Assembly: GCF_000026545.1 (NCBI RefSeq)
Contig: NC_011601.1
Source: Escherichia coli O127:H6 str. E2348/69
GTDB lineage: Bacteria > Pseudomonadota > Gammaproteobacteria > Enterobacterales > Enterobacteriaceae
Strand: one strand, 5' to 3'
Length of the DNA stretch: 64,000 nucleotides
Below, piece by piece: positions 2,815 to 39,768 of this stretch (its first letter is position 1; each line of letters opens with the position of its first letter). Below the pieces are notes generated by a model, which saw nothing but the letters and a program-made list of their open reading frames with translations, had not been told where the DNA came from and made no database searches. Both the position numbers and the translations under genes were made by a program.

Positions 2815-4662
2815 GTGTTAAACCGTTATCCTTTGTGGAAGTACGTCATGCTGATCGTGGTGATTGTCATCGGTCTGCTGTATGCGCTTCCCAACCTGTT
2901 TGGTGAGGATCCGGCTGTTCAGATCACTGGTGCGCGCGGAGTCGCCGCCAGTGAGCAAACGCTGATCCAGGTCCAGAAAACGTTACAAGAAGAAAAAATA
3001 ACTGCTAAGTCTGTGGCACTGGAAGAGGGCGCTATTCTTGCGCGCTTCGACTCCACTGACACCCAGCTGCGCGCTCGTGAAGCATTAATGGGCGTTATGG
3101 GTGACAAATACGTCGTGGCGCTTAACCTTGCCCCGGCAACGCCGCGCTGGCTGGCAGCTATTCATGCTGAGCCGATGAAGCTCGGCCTTGACCTGCGTGG
3201 CGGCGTTCACTTCCTGATGGAAGTGGATATGGACACCGCGCTTGGCAAACTCCAGGAACAAAATATCGATAGCCTGCGCAGCGACCTGCGTGAAAAGGGC
3301 ATCCCGTATACCACCGTTCGTAAAGAAAACAACTACGGCCTGAGCATCACTTTCCGCGATGCTAAAGCTCGTGATGAAGCCATTGCGTATCTGAGCAAGC
3401 GCCATCCGGACCTGGTGATTAGCAGCCAGGGCAGCAACCAGCTGCGTGCGGTAATGAGCGATGCTCGTCTGAGTGAAGCGCGTGAATATGCGGTGCAGCA
3501 GAACATCAATATCCTGCGTAACCGTGTAAACCAACTTGGCGTGGCGGAGCCGGTGGTTCAGCGTCAGGGTGCTGACCGTATCGTTGTTGAACTGCCAGGT
3601 ATTCAGGACACTGCGCGTGCGAAAGAGATTCTGGGTGCGACGGCAACGCTGGAATTCCGTCTGGTAAACACCAACGTTGATCAGGCCGCTGCGGCATCCG
3701 GTCGCGTACCGGGCGACTCTGAAGTGAAACAGACCCGCGAAAGTCAGCCGGTTGTGCTGTACAAACGCGTAATTCTGACCGGTGACCATATCACCGACTC
3801 CACTTCCAGCCAGGACGAATACAACCAGCCGCAGGTTAACATCTCGCTCGATAGCGCGGGTGGTAACATCATGTCTAACTTCACCAAGGACAACATCGGC
3901 AAACCGATGGCAACCCTGTTTGTGGAGTACAAAGACAGCGGTAAGAAAGATGCAAACGGTCGTGCGGTTCTGGTGAAACAGGAAGAGGTGATTAATATCG
4001 CCAACATCCAGTCTCGTCTGGGTAACAGCTTCCGTATTACTGGCATCAATAACCCAAGCGAAGCGCGTCAGCTTTCACTGCTGCTGCGTGCCGGTGCGTT
4101 GATCGCGCCGATTCAGATTGTTGAAGAACGTACCATTGGCCCAACCCTGGGTATGCAGAACATTGAGCAGGGGCTGGAGGCTTGCCTTGCTGGTCTGCTG
4201 GTTTCTATTCTGTTCATGATCATCTTCTATAAGAAGTTTGGTCTGATTGCGACCAGTGCTCTGATTGCCAACTTGATCTTGATTGTCGGTATTATGTCGC
4301 TGTTGCCAGGCGCAACGCTGAGTATGCCAGGTATCGCGGGTATCGTCTTAACCCTTGCGGTAGCGGTCGATGCGAACGTACTGATCAACGAACGTATTAA
4401 AGAAGAGTTGAGCAACGGACGTACTGTTCAACAGGCAATTGATGAAGGTTATCGTGGCGCATTCAGTTCCATCTTCGATGCGAACATCACCACGCTGATT
4501 AAAGTCATCATCCTGTATGCAGTGGGTACCGGGGCAATTAAAGGGTTCGCGATTACTACCGGTATCGGTGTGGCGACGTCGATGTTTACCGCGATTGTCG
4601 GTACGCGTGCCATCGTAAACCTGCTATATGGCGGCAAGCGCGTCAAGAAGCTGTCAATCTGA
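2815..4662 (+). CDS. secD: protein translocase subunit SecD
   Basis: 615-aa ORF with GTG start, recognised as SecD. Confidence 0.95.
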
Positions 4663-10662: not shown

Positions 10663-11640
10663 ATGGCATGTGGCGAGTTCTCCCTGATTGCCCGTTATTT
10701 TGACCGTGTAAGAAGTTCTCGTCTTGATGTCGAACTGGGCATCGGCGACGATTGCGCTCTTCTCAATATCCCCGAGAAACAGACCCTGGCGATCAGCACT
10801 GATACGCTGGTGGCGGGCAACCACTTCCTCCCTGATATCGATCCTGCTGATCTGGCTTATAAAGCACTGGCGGTGAACCTAAGCGATCTGGCAGCGATGG
10901 GGGCCGATCCGGCCTGGCTGACGCTGGCATTAACCTTACCGGACGTAGACGAAGCGTGGCTTGAGTCCTTCAGAGACAGCTTGTTTGATCTTCTCAATTA
11001 TTACGATATGCAACTCATTGGCGGCGATACCACGCGTGGGCCATTATCAATGACGTTGGGTATCCACGGCTTTGTTCCGATGGGACGAGCCTTAACGCGC
11101 TCTGGGGCGAAACCGGGTGACTGGATCTATGTGACCGGTACACCGGGCGATAGCGCTGCCGGGCTGGCGATTTTGCAAAACCGTTTGCAGGTTGCCGATG
11201 CTAAAGATGCGGACTACTTGATCAAACGTCATCTCCGTCCGTCGCCGCGTATTTTACAGGGGCAGGCACTGCGCGATCTGGCAAATTCAGCTATCGATCT
11301 CTCTGACGGTCTGATTTCCGATCTCGGGCATATCGTGAAAGCCAGCGACTGCGGCGCACGTATTGACCTGGCATTGCTGCCGTTTTCTGATGCGCTTTCT
11401 CGCCATGTTGAACCGGAACAGGCGCTGCGCTGGGCGCTCTCTGGCGGTGAAGATTACGAGTTGTGTTTTACTGTGCCGGAACTGAACCGTGGCGCGCTGG
11501 ATGTAGCTCTCGGACACCTGGGCGTACCGTTTACCTGTATCGGGCAAATGACCGCCGATATCGAAGGGCTTTGTTTTATTCGTGACGGCGAACCTGTCAC
11601 GTTAGACTGGAAAGGATATGACCATTTTGCCACGCCATAA
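10663..11640 (+). CDS. thiL: thiamine-monophosphate kinase
   Basis: 325-aa ORF, recognised as ThiL. Confidence 0.93.
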
Positions 11641-12136
11641 AGATGTCGCGAAAAGTCGCCTGAAGATGAGTAATCCGTGGCATCTGCTTGCTGTCGGATT
11701 CGGAAGTGGATTAAGCCCAATCGTTCCTGGCACGATGGGGTCGCTGGCGGCGATTCCCTTCTGGTATCTGATGACTTTTTTGCCCTGGCAGCTCTATTCG
11801 CTGGTGGTAATGCTGGGGATCTGTATCGGCGTCTATCTTTGTCATCAAACGGCGAAAGACATGGGCGTGCACGATCACGGCAGTATTGTCTGGGACGAAT
11901 TTATTGGTATGTGGATTACGCTCATGGCGCTGCCGACCAATGACTGGCAGTGGGTTACCGCCGGATTTGTGATTTTCCGTATTCTGGATATGTGGAAGCC
12001 GTGGCCGATCCGCTGGTTTGACCGCAATGTACATGGCGGCATGGGGATCATGATAGATGATATTGTCGCCGGGGTGATCTCCGCTGGCATCCTGTATTTT
12101 ATTGGACATCACTGGCCGCTGGGTATTCTGTCGTAG
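11618..12136 (+). CDS. pgpA: phosphatidylglycerophosphatase A
   Basis: 172-aa ORF, recognised as PgpA; overlaps thiL 3' end by 23 nt. Confidence 0.93.
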
Positions 12137-12189
12137 TTGTGCACCGATGCCTGATGTGACACTTGTCACGTCTCATCAGGCCTGCATAC

Positions 12190-13164
12190 CTATTTAAATC
12201 CTACGACCGGATGCGGTTTATACGGCGTTTCCAGTTCAGCAATCTGTTCCGGCTTTAAAGTGATATCCACCGCGTTCAACAGCTCATCAAGCTGTTCCTC
12301 CCGAGAAGTTCCGATAATCGGTGCGGCAATGCCCGGTTTACTCAACAACCAGGCCAGCGCAACTTGTGCTCGTGTTGTACCGAGTTCTTCACTGACGCCC
12401 GTTAACCGCTCTGCGATCTGCGCGTCATTTTCATCGCTTTCTTTATAGAGATTTTTACCCACCTCATCAGACACCAGTCGTGCGGTGGTTTCTCCCCAAG
12501 GACGCGTCAGGCGGCCCCGCGCCAGCGGGCTCCACGGAATGACCGCCACGCCTTCCTCATAACACAGCGGCAGCATCTCGCGCTCTTCTTCACGATAAAT
12601 CAGATTGTAGTGATCCTGCATACTGACAAACTGCGCCCAGCCGTGCTGTTTTTGTAGTTCCAGTGCTTGAGCAAACTGCGAAGCGTGCATGGATGACGCG
12701 CCGATATAACGCGCTTTCCCGGCTTTTACCACGTCGTTCAGGGCTTCCAGCGTCTCTTCGATCGGCGTGTTGTAATCCCAGCGATGAATTTGCAGGATAT
12801 CGACATAATCCATGCCGAGACGGAGCAGGCTGTCGTCGATAGAGCGCAAAATTTGTGCACGGGATAATCCTTCCGGTAAATCACCAACGCGATGGAACAC
12901 TTTGGTCGCAACGACCACGTCTTCACGACGGGCGAAATCCCGCAGTGCGCGACCGACGATCTCTTCGCTGCTGCCATCGGAATAGCTATTGGCGGTATCA
13001 AAGAAATTTATGCCGCCTTCCAGTGCGCGTTTAATGATGGGACGGCTGCTCTCTTCCGGCAGTGTCCATGCGTGATTACCGCGATCTGGCTCGCCAAAGG
13101 TCATACAGCCGAGGCAAAGTCGGGAAACACGAAGGTCGGTTTTTCCTAAGGGGTTGTATTGCAT
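12190..13164 (-). CDS. yajO: aldo-keto reductase YajO
   Basis: 324-aa ORF of the aldo-keto reductase family, last gene of the xseB-ispA-dxs-yajO cluster. Confidence 0.9.
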   Translation of the reverse strand: MQYNPLGKTDLRVSRLCLGCMTFGEPDRGNHAWTLPEESSRPIIKRALEGGINFFDTANSYSDGSSEEIVGRALRDFARREDVVVATKVFHRVGDLPEGLSRAQILRSIDDSLLRLGMDYVDILQIHRWDYNTPIEETLEALNDVVKAGKARYIGASSMHASQFAQALELQKQHGWAQFVSMQDHYNLIYREEEREMLPLCYEEGVAVIPWSPLARGRLTRPWGETTARLVSDEVGKNLYKESDENDAQIAERLTGVSEELGTTRAQVALAWLLSKPGIAAPIIGTSREEQLDELLNAVDITLKPEQIAELETPYKPHPVVGFK

Positions 13165-13218
13165 GCTGCCACTCCTGCCATGAATAATTTCTTAAGCATA
13201 GCAGGAGTAGAGTAGGGA

Positions 13219-15081
13219 TTATGCCAGCCAGGCTTTGATTTTGGCTTCCATACCGGTGGCATCGAGGCCGAGTTCGGCGCGCATTTCTTCCTGAGTTCCT
13301 TGTGGAATAAAGAAGTCCAGCAGGCCAATGTTCAGCACGGGTACTGGTTTACGATGGGCCATCAACACTTCGTTCACGCCGCTGCCTGCACCGCCCATAA
13401 TGGCGTTTTCTTCTACGGTAACCAGCGCTTCATGGCTGGCGGCCATTTCCAGTATTAACGCTTCATCAAGCGGTTTCACGAAACGCATATCGACCAGCGT
13501 AGCGTTCAGCGATTCAGCGACTTTCGCCGCTTCTGGCATCAGCGTACCAAAGTTAAGGATCGCCAGTTTCTCACCACGACGCTTCACAATGCCTTTGCCA
13601 ATTGGCAGTTTTTCCAGTGGCGTCAGTTCCACGCCAACTGCGTTGCCGCGCGGGTAGCGCACCGCGGACGGGCCATCGTTATAGTGATAGCCGGTATAGA
13701 GCATCTGGCGACATTCGTTTTCATCGCTCGGGGTCATAATGACCATTTCCGGTATGCAGCGCAGGTAAGAGAGATCAAAAGCGCCCTGGTGGGTTTGACC
13801 GTCAGCACCAACAATGCCCGCACGGTCGATGGCGAACAGGACCGGAAGCTTTTGAATCGCCACGTCATGCAGCACCTGATCATAGGCGCGTTGCAGGAAG
13901 GTGGAGTAGATCGCGACAATGGGTTTGTAGCCTCCAATCGCCAGACCCGCAGCAAAGGTCACTGCGTGTTGCTCGGCAATTGCCACGTCGAAGTAGCGAT
14001 CCGGGAATTTACGTGAAAACTCGACCATGCCGGAACCTTCACGCATCGCCGGAGTAATCGCCATCAGCTTGTTATCTTTCGCTGCGGTTTCGCACAACCA
14101 GTCGCCAAAGATTTTTGAATAGCTTGGCAAACCGCCGCTACTTTTCGGCAGACAACCGCTGGAGGGATCAAATTTAGGCACGGCGTGGAAGGTGATTGGG
14201 TCTTTTTCTGCCGGTTCATAACCACGACCTTTTTTGGTCATGATATGCAGGAACTGCGGGCCTTTCAGGTCGCGCATGTTCTTAAGCGTGGTGATAAGCC
14301 CCAGCACATCGTGACCGTCCACCGGGCCGATGTAGTTAAAGCCCAGCTCTTCAAACAACGTGCCAGGCACTACCATGCCTTTAATATGTTCTTCGGTACG
14401 TTTGAGCAGCTCTTTAATGGGTGGCACGCCAGAGAAAACTTTTTTTCCGCCTTCGCGCAGTGAAGAGTAAAGCTTACCGGAAAGCAGCTGCGCCAGATGG
14501 TTGTTGAGCGCGCCAACATTTTCGGAAATCGACATTTCATTGTCGTTGAGAACCACCAGCATATCAGGACGGATATCGCCCGCGTGATTCATCGCTTCAA
14601 ACGCCATGCCAGCAGTAATCGCGCCATCGCCAATGACACAGACGGTGCGGCGATTTTTGCCTTCTTTCTCGGCAGCAACTGCGATCCCAATTCCGGCACT
14701 GATGGAGGTTGATGAATGCCCGACGCTTAATACGTCATATTCGCTTTCGCCGCGCCACGGGAACGGGTGCAGGCCACCTTTCTGACGGATGGTGCCGATT
14801 TTGTCGCGGCGCCCGGTCAAAATTTTATGCGGATAAGCCTGATGCCCCACATCCCAGATTAACTGGTCAAACGGGGTATTGTAGACATAGTGCAGCGCCA
14901 CGGTCAGTTCGACCGTGCCCAGCCCGGAGGCGAAGTGCCCGCTGGAACGGCTCACGCTGTCGAGTAAATAGCGGCGCAGTTCGTCGCAGAGTTTCGGTAA
15001 ACTCTCTTTCGGCAACAGTCGTAACTCCTGGGTGGAGTCGACCAGTGCCAGGGTCGGGTATTTGGCAATATCAAAACTCAT
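13219..15081 (-). CDS. dxs: 1-deoxy-D-xylulose-5-phosphate synthase
   Basis: 620-aa ORF, recognised as Dxs (thiamine-diphosphate enzyme). Confidence 0.95.
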
Positions 15082-15105
15082 CAGGGGCCTATTAATACTT
15101 ATTGT

Positions 15106-16005
15106 TTATTTATTACGCTGGATGATGTAGTCCGCTAGCGCTTCCAGTGCCGAGGTATCGAGTGACTGTTCAGTCAGTTGTTTCAGCGACTGACGGGCAT
15201 CGTCGATCAGATCCCGGGCTTTCTTCCGGGCTTGCTCAAGACCCAGAAGTGCAGGGTAGGTACTTTTACCAAGTTGCTGGTCGGCACCCTGGCGTTTTCC
15301 CAACGTTGCAGTATCTCCCACCACATCCAGGATGTCATCCTGAACCTGGAAGGCAAGGCCGATGCTCTCTGCATACTTGTCGAGTACTGGCAGTGCATTT
15401 CGTCCTTTATCTCCGGCGCTTAATGCACCAAGGCGAACGGCGGCGCGAATCAATGCGCCGGTTTTATGACGATGAATACGCTCAAGCGCGTCCAGAGGTA
15501 CGTGTTTGCCTTCAGCGTCTAAATCTAATGCCTGACCACCGCACATTCCGGCAATACCGCTGGCGCTCGCCAGCTCAGAAATCATCGAAATTCTGTCGCG
15601 ATCTGACACTTCCGGCATATCGGCATCGCTTAGAATCGAGAACGCCAGCGTTTGTAAAGCGTCACCAGCGAGAATCGCGTTTGCTTCGCCAAACTTCACA
15701 TGGCAGGTCGGCAAACCGCGACGCAGATCGTCATCATCCATCGCCGGTAAATCATCATGAATTAATGAGTAAGCGTGGATACACTCTACGGCGGCAGCGG
15801 GTGCGTCCAGTGTGTTTGTGCTAACGCCGAACATATGACCAGTGGCATAAACCAGGAAAGGTCGCAGGCGCTTACCACCTAATAATGCGCCATACTGCAT
15901 GGTTTCGACCACGGGAGTGTTCTGAAAGGGCAGTGGGGCGATAAAACGGCTCAGCGCCTGGTTGGCCTGCTTAACGCAGGCTTCGAGTTGCTGCGGAAAG
16001 TCCAT
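15106..16005 (-). CDS. ispA: farnesyl diphosphate synthase
   Basis: 299-aa ORF with two DDxxD motifs (IHDDLPAMDDDD, VQDDILD). Confidence 0.95.
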   Translation of the reverse strand: MDFPQQLEACVKQANQALSRFIAPLPFQNTPVVETMQYGALLGGKRLRPFLVYATGHMFGVSTNTLDAPAAAVECIHAYSLIHDDLPAMDDDDLRRGLPTCHVKFGEANAILAGDALQTLAFSILSDADMPEVSDRDRISMISELASASGIAGMCGGQALDLDAEGKHVPLDALERIHRHKTGALIRAAVRLGALSAGDKGRNALPVLDKYAESIGLAFQVQDDILDVVGDTATLGKRQGADQQLGKSTYPALLGLEQARKKARDLIDDARQSLKQLTEQSLDTSALEALADYIIQRNK

Positions 16006-17901: not shown

Positions 17902-17954
17902 TATGTGGTTGTAACGTCGCATCTGGTCAGATGCGACGCTTACCGCATCCGACA

Positions 17955-19419
<1,465 letters not shown>

Positions 19420-19586
19420 TGTTCCTCCTCACCCGCAACCACTCCGGGTGTTCAATAAGGCTATCCCTTAATTGTGCATGCTGTTGCGACTATGCACAAT
19501 TAAGGGATACGTCCTGGTGCAGGACTGTTGGTTATTTAACTTTGCAGGTATTATGCTTCGCATCAAAAATGAAGGGAGAGGAAAAG

Positions 19587-20078
19587 ATGCCATCTTTCGA
19601 TATTGTCTCTGAAGTTGATCTTCAGGAAGCACGTAACGCGGTCGATAACGCGAGCCGCGAAGTGGAGTCCCGTTTTGACTTCCGTAACGTTGAAGCCTCA
19701 TTTGAGCTGAATGACGCCAGCAAAACCATCAAAGTGTTGAGCGAGTCCGACTTCCAGGTCAATCAGTTGCTGGATATTCTGCGTGCCAAGTTGCTGAAGC
19801 GCGGCATTGAAGGCAGTTCACTGGATGTACCGGAAAATATCGTTCATAGCGGTAAAACCTGGTTTGTGGAAGCGAAACTGAAACAGGGCATTGAGAGCGC
19901 GACTCAGAAGAAAATCGTCAAAATGATCAAAGACAGCAAACTGAAAGTGCAGGCGCAAATTCAGGGCGATGAGATCCGCGTAACGGGTAAATCTCGTGAT
20001 GATTTACAGGCTGTCATGGCGGTGGTACGTGGTGGCGATCTCGGTCAGCCGTTCCAGTTCAAAAACTTCCGCGATTAA
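19587..20078 (+). CDS. yajQ: nucleotide-binding protein YajQ
   Basis: ORF 19419..20078; start at ATG 19587 ([18 protein letters not shown]...) after GGAG RBS, ~163 aa. Confidence 0.9.
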
Positions 20079-20104
20079 TCGCGACAACCTGCGCTTTGTT
20101 CATG

Positions 20105-20192
20105 TCAGATGCGGCATGAACGCCTGATTCGGCCTACAAAGGTTTGTCACTCAGGAACTTTGTAGGCCTGATAAGCGTAGCGCAGCAGGCAA
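20105..20192. repeat. pair of inverted REP (repetitive extragenic palindromic) units
   Basis: gatgcggcatgaacgcctgattcggcctacaaag and inverted copy ctttgtaggcctgataagcgtagcgcagc between convergent yajQ and yajR. Confidence 0.75.
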
Positions 20193-20205
20193 TTCGCCTC
20201 TTTTT

Positions 20206-21570
20206 TTATGCCTGACGAATTGCCTGTTCAACCTCAAAGCGATTCGTCACTTTGCTGTCGATTTTCACGTACGCTGAATGTTCTTCTTCTGCAATCAACA
20301 CTTCTTTGACGCCTTCAGTTTCCAGCAAACGTACTTTTAACGCTTCGTTTGCGGCAATGTCCGCCGGGATTTCAATGCGCAAGCTGCTGACATACGGCGG
20401 TTCTTTCATGGTACTGGCGACTGCCAGCCACACTGCGGCCAGCATTGCGCCAGCGAGAAATACGCCCTGACCGTCAAACATGCCGTCAATCCAGCCGCCC
20501 AGCGAACCGCCAATCGCCACGCCAAGAAACTGGCTGGTGGAGTAAACACCCATCGCCGTACCTTTGTAACCTGCTGGCGATTCTTTACTGATAAGTGAAG
20601 GCAGAAGGGCTTCCATCAAATTAAACGCTACAAAGAAAAGCTGCACGCCGACCACCAGTTGCCAGAACTGCGTTTGTGCGTTCCACAACACAATTTCCGC
20701 AACCACGATCAACCCGACGCAGAAGACAAAGACTTGCTTCATTTTGCGCTTAACTTCAGCGTAGATAATGAAAGGCACGACCGAGCCAAAGGCGATTAAC
20801 ATCGTTGCCAGGTAGACCTTCCAGTGTTCAGCCGCCGGGAACCCCGCATTAGCCATCTGTCCGGGCAGGGCAACAAAGGTCGACATCAGCAAAATATGCA
20901 GACACATAATGCCAAAGTTGAGTTTCAGCAGCCGCGGTTCCGCCAGCACTTTACTGAAACTGCCTTTCACCATTCCGGACTCACGATTAAGTACGTGAGT
21001 GCTACTGTTGGGCACAACCCAAATGGTCAACGCAATGCCGGTTATTGCCAGAATAGCGATCATCCAGAACAGCGCGTGCAGCCCAAGTTTGTGAGTGATG
21101 ATCGGGCCAAGCACCATCGCAATGGCAAAGGTAATGCCAAAGCTCACGCCGATAAACGCCATCGCTTTGGTGCGGTTTTGTTCGCGCGTGAGATCGGAAA
21201 GCAGCGCCATAACGGCAGCGGCAATCGCACCGGAGCCTTGTAGCGCCCGACCCAGAATAATTCCCCAGATGGAGTCAGAGAGCGCAGCGATAACGCTACC
21301 GGCGGCAAACACCGCCAGCCCACCGACAATTAATGGTTTGCGACCAATGCGGTCTGAAAGCAGGCCAAACGGAATCTGAAAAACGGCCTGAGTCAGACCA
21401 TAAATACCAATGGCAATACCGATTAATGCTTCGCTGGCACCTTGCAGAGCCATGCCGTACGTGGTCAGAACCGGCAGAACCATGAACATGCCCAGCATGC
21501 GCAACGAGAAAACGGTGCCTAAACCCCAGGTCGCGCGCCGCTCACCTGGCGTCATTTTATAATCGTTCAT
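20206..21570 (-). CDS. yajR: MFS transporter YajR
   Basis: ORF 20206..21768; start trimmed to ATG 21570 (MNDYKMTPGERRATWG...) for ~454 aa. Confidence 0.9.
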   Translation of the reverse strand: MNDYKMTPGERRATWGLGTVFSLRMLGMFMVLPVLTTYGMALQGASEALIGIAIGIYGLTQAVFQIPFGLLSDRIGRKPLIVGGLAVFAAGSVIAALSDSIWGIILGRALQGSGAIAAAVMALLSDLTREQNRTKAMAFIGVSFGITFAIAMVLGPIITHKLGLHALFWMIAILAITGIALTIWVVPNSSTHVLNRESGMVKGSFSKVLAEPRLLKLNFGIMCLHILLMSTFVALPGQMANAGFPAAEHWKVYLATMLIAFGSVVPFIIYAEVKRKMKQVFVFCVGLIVVAEIVLWNAQTQFWQLVVGVQLFFVAFNLMEALLPSLISKESPAGYKGTAMGVYSTSQFLGVAIGGSLGGWIDGMFDGQGVFLAGAMLAAVWLAVASTMKEPPYVSSLRIEIPADIAANEALKVRLLETEGVKEVLIAEEEHSAYVKIDSKVTNRFEVEQAIRQA

Positions 21571-39717: not shown

Positions 39718-39768
39718 ACGTTTTGTGGTGCCGGATGCTCAAGCCGCATCCGGCGACACCCGGAATAA

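Follow-up and report, generated by a model that had tools for sequence, protein, structure and literature searches.

The window analysed here is a stretch of 64,000 nucleotides from Escherichia coli O127:H6 strain E2348/69 (NC_011601.1). In this window, the genes yajQ and yajR are convergent. The stop codon of yajQ is at 20076-20078 on the plus strand and that of yajR is at 20206-20208 on the minus strand, which leaves a gap of 127 bp (20079-20205). The gene order and the gap length are the same in E. coli K-12 MG1655, where the counterpart of the gap is found at 445,175-445,301. Catalogues of REP/BIME elements in E. coli go back decades. An earlier note on this DNA, made from the letters of the sequence, had read the gap as an inverted, BIME-like pair of REP units and had quoted two strings from it. 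Both are found, gatgcggcatgaacgcctgattcggcctacaaag at 20108-20141 and ctttgtaggcctgataagcgtagcgcagc at 20158-20186. The coordinates given for the pair were approximately right; the whole element extends from about 20091 to about 20198.

The Y and Z2 types of REP units were defined by Gilson, Bachellier and Hofnung and were reused by Ton-Hoang et al. 2012 (PMC3333891). Consensus sequences of Y, Z1 and Z2 were used as blastn-short queries against the whole 64-kb window. For Y and Z1, the consensus was checked on ten Y and Z1 units of the K-12 yjdM-yjdN (REP325) array, in which the repeats are TGCCGGATGCGGCGTAAACGCCTTATCCGGCCTAC (Y) and TGCCTGATGCGACGCTTGCGCGTCTTATCAGGCCTAC (Z1), and on other units. 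The y REP sequence published by Messing et al. agrees with the Y consensus (PMC3479197). A real Z2 unit, GCCTGATGCGCTACGCTTATCAGGCCTAC, from the BIME between mgtA and ridA, agrees with the consensus as well. Only two significant matches were obtained in the window: Y at 20108-20137 (plus strand, 27/30, E=2e-5) and Z2 at 20162-20191 (minus strand, 29/30, E=2.8e-10). A degenerate REP pattern matches once, versus 0.02 times expected from shuffled sequences. The earlier note had stated that its reading would fall if alignment to the REP consensus revealed no similarity. Similarity is present, and the core of the reading, an inverted REP pair between convergent genes, stands.

The left unit is of the Y type. 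In full, it covers 20103-20137 on the plus strand (TGTCAGATGCGGCATGAACGCCTGATTCGGCCTAC) and matches the Y unit of the K-12 REP325 array at 29/35 positions. Its stem is decayed, and it ends with the CTAC tail that forms its foot (20134-20137). The right unit is of the Z2 type. It covers 20162-20191 and reads TGCCTGCTGCGCTACGCTTATCAGGCCTAC on the minus strand, its foot being GTAG on the plus strand (20162-20165). It aligns with Z2 over 30/30 columns, 29 of which are identical, while its match with Z1 is limited to the 14-nt tail that is shared by these types. The Z2 copy at mgtA-ridA has its sole difference at the same A/C position. The two units face each other tail to tail in inverse orientation (CTAC...GTAG), with arms at 20124-20141 and 20158-20175. 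A linker of 24 nt (AAAGGTTTGTCACTCAGGAACTTT, 20138-20161) connects the tails, so that the arrangement is that of a BIME in the generic sense.

The closest paralogous loci, mgtA-ridA from strain 2A and melB-yjdF from K-12, were aligned with the element, and the mosaic was found to go past both units. At these paralogs, the motif GCGCTTTGTT(C/G)A lies immediately beside the Y head, and CAGGCnATT(T) comes after the Z2 head. At yajQ-yajR, the left flank motif GCGCTTTGTTCA (20091-20102, plus strand) adjoins the Y head and is part of the mosaic element. It also adjoins the Y units at melB-yjdF (K-12) and mgtA-ridA (strain 2A), and we take it to correspond to the 'A/B' flank motifs of the older BIME literature. 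The right flank (20192-20207, plus strand) consists of ATTCGCC and a subsequent T run (T7 in the strain of the window). It overlaps the stop codon of yajR and resembles CAGGCnATTT at the paralogous BIMEs. The architecture of flank, Y, a linker of about 25 nt and Z2 is common to mgtA-ridA and melB-yjdF.

Both units have the GTAG/CTAC foot by which REPs are defined (PMC3333891), and both are hairpins with internal mismatches, though weak ones. REPs are extragenic and occur in many copies per genome. This also applies here: the element is located in the yajQ-yajR gap, and the gap sequence has a median of at least 37 matching places per genome in 5,425 of 5,426 E. coli genomes. The gap sequence is thus a member of a dispersed repeat family. 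Judged by its sequence, the element is very probably one copy of the REP/BIME repeat family of E. coli. A search of Rfam with positions 19400-20700 at a permissive E-value returned no family. To our knowledge, REPs are absent from Rfam. The annotated K-12 record is devoid of repeat features, even for REP325, so that the missing REP feature at yajQ-yajR is uninformative. Numbering and position, taken alone, suggest that the element is probably REP40 of K-12. It is of an already known kind, with a copy present in K-12, and it matters little alone.

There are further hairpins in the window, whose K-12 counterparts are listed as bidirectional terminators in Table S16 of Harris et al. (see below). 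A single Z1-like REP hairpin, gcctgatgtgacacttgtcacgtctcatcaggcc, is found at about 12141-12185 (counterpart REP38, in the pgpA/yajO gap). At about 17915-17951, the thiI-yajL gap contains the hairpin acgtcgcatctggtcagatgcgacg, which has two REP-head-like arms (counterpart REP39). A short Y-like hairpin devoid of a CTAC tail, gtgccggatgctcaagccgcatccggc, is found at about 39729-39754 (counterpart REP41, in the fadM/queC gap).

Three classes of BIMEs have been described (PMC3333891). BIME-1 elements combine y and z1, occur as a single copy and have a long L linker, often with an IHF site inside. BIME-2 elements combine y and z2 and form tandem arrays with short linkers. 'Atypical' BIMEs mix features of BIME-1 and BIME-2. 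BIMEs bind gyrase, and BIME-2 (Y+Z2) does so more strongly than BIME-1 (PMC1475751; PMC3333891). The units at yajQ-yajR resemble the REP types Y and Z2 in being imperfect palindromes of 30-35 nt that have a GTAG/CTAC foot, are extragenic and belong to a high-copy family. They differ from the consensus in that the Y head is GTCAG rather than GCCGG, that Z2 has an A-to-C exchange in its stem, and that there are extra stem mismatches. With BIME-1, which is also called RIP or RIB, the element shares the single copy, a rather long linker between the tails and conserved flanks on the outside. Unlike BIME-1, its right unit is Z2, not Z1, and it is devoid of an IHF consensus. With BIME-2, it shares the composition of Y and Z2 in inverse orientation; unlike the BIME-2 arrays, whose copy number differs among strains, it is single-copy in all E. 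coli strains examined. Set beside BIME-2, which has a short S linker and flanking motifs called s, l or r, its linker has 24 nt, and its flank motif is as at melB-yjdF and mgtA-ridA. Because it consists of y and z2, is present as a single copy, has a 24-nt linker and lacks an IHF consensus, the element is assigned as an atypical BIME.

Binding of IHF had been attributed to elements of this kind in the earlier note. The IHF consensus WATCAANNNNTTR has no match with at most one mismatch in the 127-bp gap, including the linker. Two matches with two mismatches occur in the gap, which is the chance rate (about 1.06 per 127 nt). Since there is no match with at most one mismatch, IHF binding was rejected at the level of the consensus; the right unit, moreover, is Z2 rather than the Z1 of BIME-1.

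The element was also compared with REPINs, which consist of two inverted REPs, form one long hairpin and are mobilized by a RAYT (Bertels and Rainey 2011, PMC3116915). It likewise has two inverted REPs and a spacer, and its predicted fold is one long hairpin that is due to inter-unit pairing. While REPINs are mobilized, the yajQ-yajR element stays fixed at its site in E. coli. The sequence prerequisites for binding and cleavage by TnpA-REP (GTAG and stem mismatches) are present. The element is probably the E. coli counterpart of a REPIN, and it would have originated by the spread and turnover of REPs through the REP-associated Y1 transposase. Its location in a 3' UTR between two genes, in a convergent gap, is shared with elements of the REP325 type.

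Because both stems carry extra mismatches, the hairpins of the individual units are far weaker than those of the consensus. The Y unit has -8.2 kcal/mol (consensus: -21.3) and the Z2 unit has -9.5 kcal/mol (consensus: -13.2). Folding of the whole element yields -47.2 kcal/mol for the plus strand and -43.7 kcal/mol for the minus strand, versus -28.7 kcal/mol when the two halves are folded separately. The z-scores against shuffled sequences are -6.0 and -4.2. For either transcript, the predicted minimum-energy fold is one branched REPIN-like hairpin and not two REP hairpins. In its predicted core, the two unit tails pair with each other (UUCGGCCUACAAAG with CUUUGUAGGCCUGA). A predicted outer helix is formed between CUGCGCU from the left flank and AGCGCAG from the Z2 arm. 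The RNA is thus predicted to fold as one long branched hairpin by inter-unit pairing because the unit hairpins have decayed.

Two smaller symmetric structures are found at the stop codons. The first is a perfect 11-nt inverted repeat (CAGGCAATTCG at 20186-20196 and CGAATTGCCTG at 20216-20226), which has the yajR stop codon in its loop and pairs the Z2 head and the adjacent flank with the last codons of yajR. A rough estimate for a region of 200 nt gives an expectation of about 0.005 perfect inverted repeats of 11 nt. A helix of 12 bp is predicted from it in both transcripts. The repeat is retained in both E. coli haplotypes, in one of which the helix is longer owing to an additional T in the left arm and a synonymous A-to-G exchange in yajR. 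As these two changes are tightly linked, the lengthening of the helix is not a proof of selection. The inverted repeat is absent from the Citrobacter, Salmonella and Enterobacter loci that were compared.

The other structure is a perfect palindrome, CGCGATTAATCGCG, at 20070-20083, which spans the yajQ stop codon and is followed by GAAGTTTTTGA on the minus strand. A scan for terminator-like sites caught this palindrome on the minus strand (20084..20069). Because the scan found 6 sites versus 3.3 expected, this call is weak evidence. The hairpin formed by CGCGATTAATCGCG is present in both RNA folds and is invariant across nine E. coli strains. Together with the U5 that follows, the palindrome is a weak candidate for an intrinsic terminator acting on yajR read-through transcripts. 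A scan for sigma-70 promoters found nothing in the region.

The locus is widespread within E. coli. At least 80% of a 401-bp probe was found in one place in 5,284 of 5,426 complete genomes (about 97%). In every sampled row of these 5,284 full-length matches, the span of the locus is unchanged. Nine diverse strains, chosen across the range of identities, have one REP pair each and a gap of 127 bp, give or take 1 bp. The earlier note had proposed a comparison of REP copy numbers at this site, which reveals no visible variation: there is one pair in 9/9 strains. As the span is unchanged in all sampled rows, the REP copy number looks fixed at this site.

The nucleotide sequence, in turn, is unusually polymorphic. 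Only three records have a gap that is at least 99% identical to that of the window, and the K-12 gap is 92.9% identical. Among the nine strains, the differences cluster in the left flank, in the linker and in the bases before the yajR stop codon. The T run next to this stop codon is T7, T6 or T4, depending on the strain, and because of this variation in length it does not qualify as a conserved terminator tail. The Z2 unit hardly varies, with only two single-nucleotide variants across the nine strains. The Y unit occurs as two alleles in E. coli, which differ at about 8 of 30 positions (TGTCAGATGCGGCATGAACGCCTGATTCGG versus TGCCGAATGCAGCATGAACAGCTAATTCGG). The second allele, TGCCGAATGCAGCATGAACAGCTAATTCGGCCTAC, which is found in other E. 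coli strains, has a better stem (-12.7 kcal/mol). Two alleles of Y beside a near-invariant Z2 suggest conversion or replacement of the unit rather than drift by point mutations.

In 127 of the 5,426 genomes (2.3%), an island of 4.2 kb with a GC content of 36% is found, and no REP is left at the site. The island encodes a SEL1-like repeat protein and a TPR protein. An example is E. coli 1368KP, where the island at positions 11409-15585 of the locus takes the place of window positions 20079 to about 20370. On the left, it starts with the base that comes next to the yajQ stop codon; on the right, it ends about 165 nt inside yajR. It thus takes the whole gap and the last 165 nt or so of yajR, resulting in a divergent C-terminal domain. 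That the island might be bounded by REPs was considered and rejected in view of these edges. The view of the earlier note that strains often differ at this site holds for nucleotide polymorphism, for the two Y alleles and for the island in 127 genomes, but not for the REP copy number.

For a comparison across Enterobacteriaceae, a pattern scan with the conserved C-terminus of yajQ was applied to species-representative genomes, which yielded at least 120 loci. The convergent pair yajQ/yajR is conserved throughout the family. E. albertii, E. fergusonii and S. enterica subsp. enterica are not among the matches listed. In Enterobacter, Leclercia, Lelliottia, Siccibacter, Silvania and others, the gap has only 29-33 bp and is made up of a bidirectional intrinsic terminator of textbook form, in which a GC hairpin has an A run before it and a T run after it. 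In 'Escherichia sp.' ESNIH1, the gap contains this terminator together with one REP. Salmonella enterica subsp. arizonae and two Citrobacter species have a gap of about 45 bp with a single REP-like hairpin. A tail-to-tail REP pair in a gap of 79-96 bp is found in C. youngae, C. gillenii, C. werkmanii and Pseudocitrobacter. The first two of these species have the units in reverse order relative to E. coli, with the Z2-like unit on the left and the Y-like unit on the right. Due to this swap, simple orthology of the pairs from E. coli and Citrobacter is doubtful. From this series of gap contents, it follows that REP occupancy of the site is old, with turnover between lineages, and that REPs replaced an ancestral terminator.

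Some loci from this comparison have unusual gaps. In Pseudescherichia vulneris, the gap has 745 bp (yajQ stop at 509), and an insert at about 530-1254 interrupts the ancestral terminator hairpin. The insert is non-coding and GC-rich, has internal inverted repeats, and contains neither an Rfam match nor a long ORF. In Superficieibacter electus, 917 bp follow the yajQ stop at 4404, and there is an apparent extra ORF between yajQ and yajR. The last three to six residues of YajR, those after the conserved ...NRFEVEQ, vary by genus (ALKA, AISQA, AIRQA, LISKG, AIAAQ and others). The 3' end of yajR apparently changes along with the terminator or REP next to it.

The element is fixed in the species, it is old, and it is sited exactly where REP-less relatives have a compact bidirectional terminator. 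Our explanation, which we consider likely as a whole, is that an old, single-copy atypical BIME stands in place of the ancestral terminator and serves as a shared 3'-UTR element. For its functional part, which we infer, namely attenuation of read-through and blocking of exonucleases by a 3'-UTR structure common to both transcripts, our confidence is tentative and stays slightly on the doubtful side of an even balance. In the proposed mechanism, the transcripts of yajQ and of yajR would both run into the element, and both would fold there into the long branched hairpin. As a 3'-UTR element of both genes, this hairpin would slow 3'-to-5' exonucleases and attenuate read-through, possibly aided by Rho. 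On the yajQ side, the T run at the yajR stop codon may assist in some strains as a possible weak terminator tail. On the yajR side, the small palindrome and the U run at the yajQ stop codon may assist.

Several published results bear on this proposal. In the preprint by Harris et al. (bioRxiv 10.64898/2026.03.23.713779), REP325 is described as a partly Rho-dependent terminator and as an mRNA stabilizer. According to the same preprint, about 30% of convergent gaps contain a REP, REPs are located in convergent gaps more often than elsewhere, and genome-wide, REPs in convergent gaps go along with higher expression of both genes. The preprint reports no general effect of terminal REPs on half-life and no role of its model REP in chromosome compaction. 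The role proposed for the yajQ-yajR element is the dual role demonstrated for REP325, and it agrees with the expression finding for convergent genes. The element itself is not a bidirectional intrinsic terminator of the usual form, there being no A run on the left and a T run on the right that varies from T7 to T4. In the available portion of Table S16 of Harris et al., which reproduces a list of bidirectional terminators that overlap REPs, there is no entry for yajQ/yajR, nor any between K-12 443,039 and 464,806. Unlike the yajQ-yajR pair, the neighbouring single-hairpin elements REP38, REP39 and REP41 are listed in that portion. REP40 was not found in the available parts of the supplement, which include the tables of Rho-dependent terminators. 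The TERMITe supplements mention neither yajQ nor yajR. The gap has been used for insertion of parS tags, with no reported problem (PMC5343486). We count the weak unit hairpins, the variable T run, the absence from Table S16 as far as available, the half-life result for terminal REPs, the parS insertions and the 127 genomes devoid of the element as evidence against a function.

Much of this evidence also fits a serious alternative, that of a selfish or neutral relic. The element would then be a decayed, transposase-made REPIN that is kept by drift and is useless to yajQ and yajR, with termination achieved via Rho or by collision of polymerases. The decay of the unit stems (-8.2 and -9.5 versus -21.3 and -13.2 kcal/mol) is as expected for a relic, and so is the high polymorphism of linker and flanks, as reflected in the 92.9% identity of the K-12 gap and in the three records that reach 99%. 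The locus is missing from the terminator list, insofar as Table S16 is available, and the gap tolerates both parS insertions (PMC5343486) and, in 127 genomes, replacement by a whole island. A relic does not, however, readily account for the Z2 unit and the CTAC and GTAG tails, which are almost invariant in nine strains while the surrounding bases vary, nor for retention of the element in about 97% of the genomes. Since the ancestral intrinsic terminator has been lost, some other structure must define the 3' ends. The genome-wide correlation of REPs in convergent gaps with higher expression (bioRxiv 10.64898/2026.03.23.713779) also speaks against a relic, and we regard this alternative as rather unlikely. 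A more elaborate variant of the functional explanation is less probable still. According to it, the decayed REP pair took over the role of the ancestral bidirectional terminator in the Escherichia lineage, as a REPIN-like hairpin in both transcripts, and, in addition, the E. coli-specific helix of 11-13 bp is under selection as a cis element by which the repeat is coupled to the termination of yajR translation or to decay of the yajR 3' end. We consider this combination quite doubtful.

The element might instead act on DNA topology and not on RNA, as a chromosomal site that recruits IHF, DNA gyrase or both. Its composition, Y and Z2, is that of the BIMEs with the stronger gyrase binding, and the L linker of BIME-1 often carries an IHF site (PMC1475751; PMC3333891). 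Against this, the gap is devoid of an IHF consensus match with up to one mismatch, and matches with two mismatches are at chance level. The element is single-copy, whereas BIME-2 elements are tandem arrays, and Harris et al. report no role in compaction for their model REP (bioRxiv 10.64898/2026.03.23.713779). From this analysis, a protein-binding site would seem improbable. That the palindromes do not belong to the REP family at all, being a chance feature or an ordinary intrinsic terminator, is refuted. The T run after the right unit in the strain of the window and the weak terminator-like site at the yajQ stop codon could have pointed that way. However, the consensus matches have E-values of 2e-5 and 2.8e-10, the REP pattern is expected only 0.02 times, and each genome contains dozens of related copies. 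Other BIMEs have the flank, the linker length and the unit order in common with the element, and a terminator with A run, hairpin and U run, as found in relatives, is missing. We prefer to regard the element as an atypical BIME that stands in place of the ancestral terminator.

For E. coli, the locus illustrates that a BIME site can keep its copy number while being a hot spot for sequence polymorphism and island replacement. Within Enterobacteriaceae, the yajQ-yajR gap provides a natural series, from a terminator via a terminator with one REP and a single REP to a REP pair, which raises the question of whether REPs may be functional replacements of intrinsic terminators.
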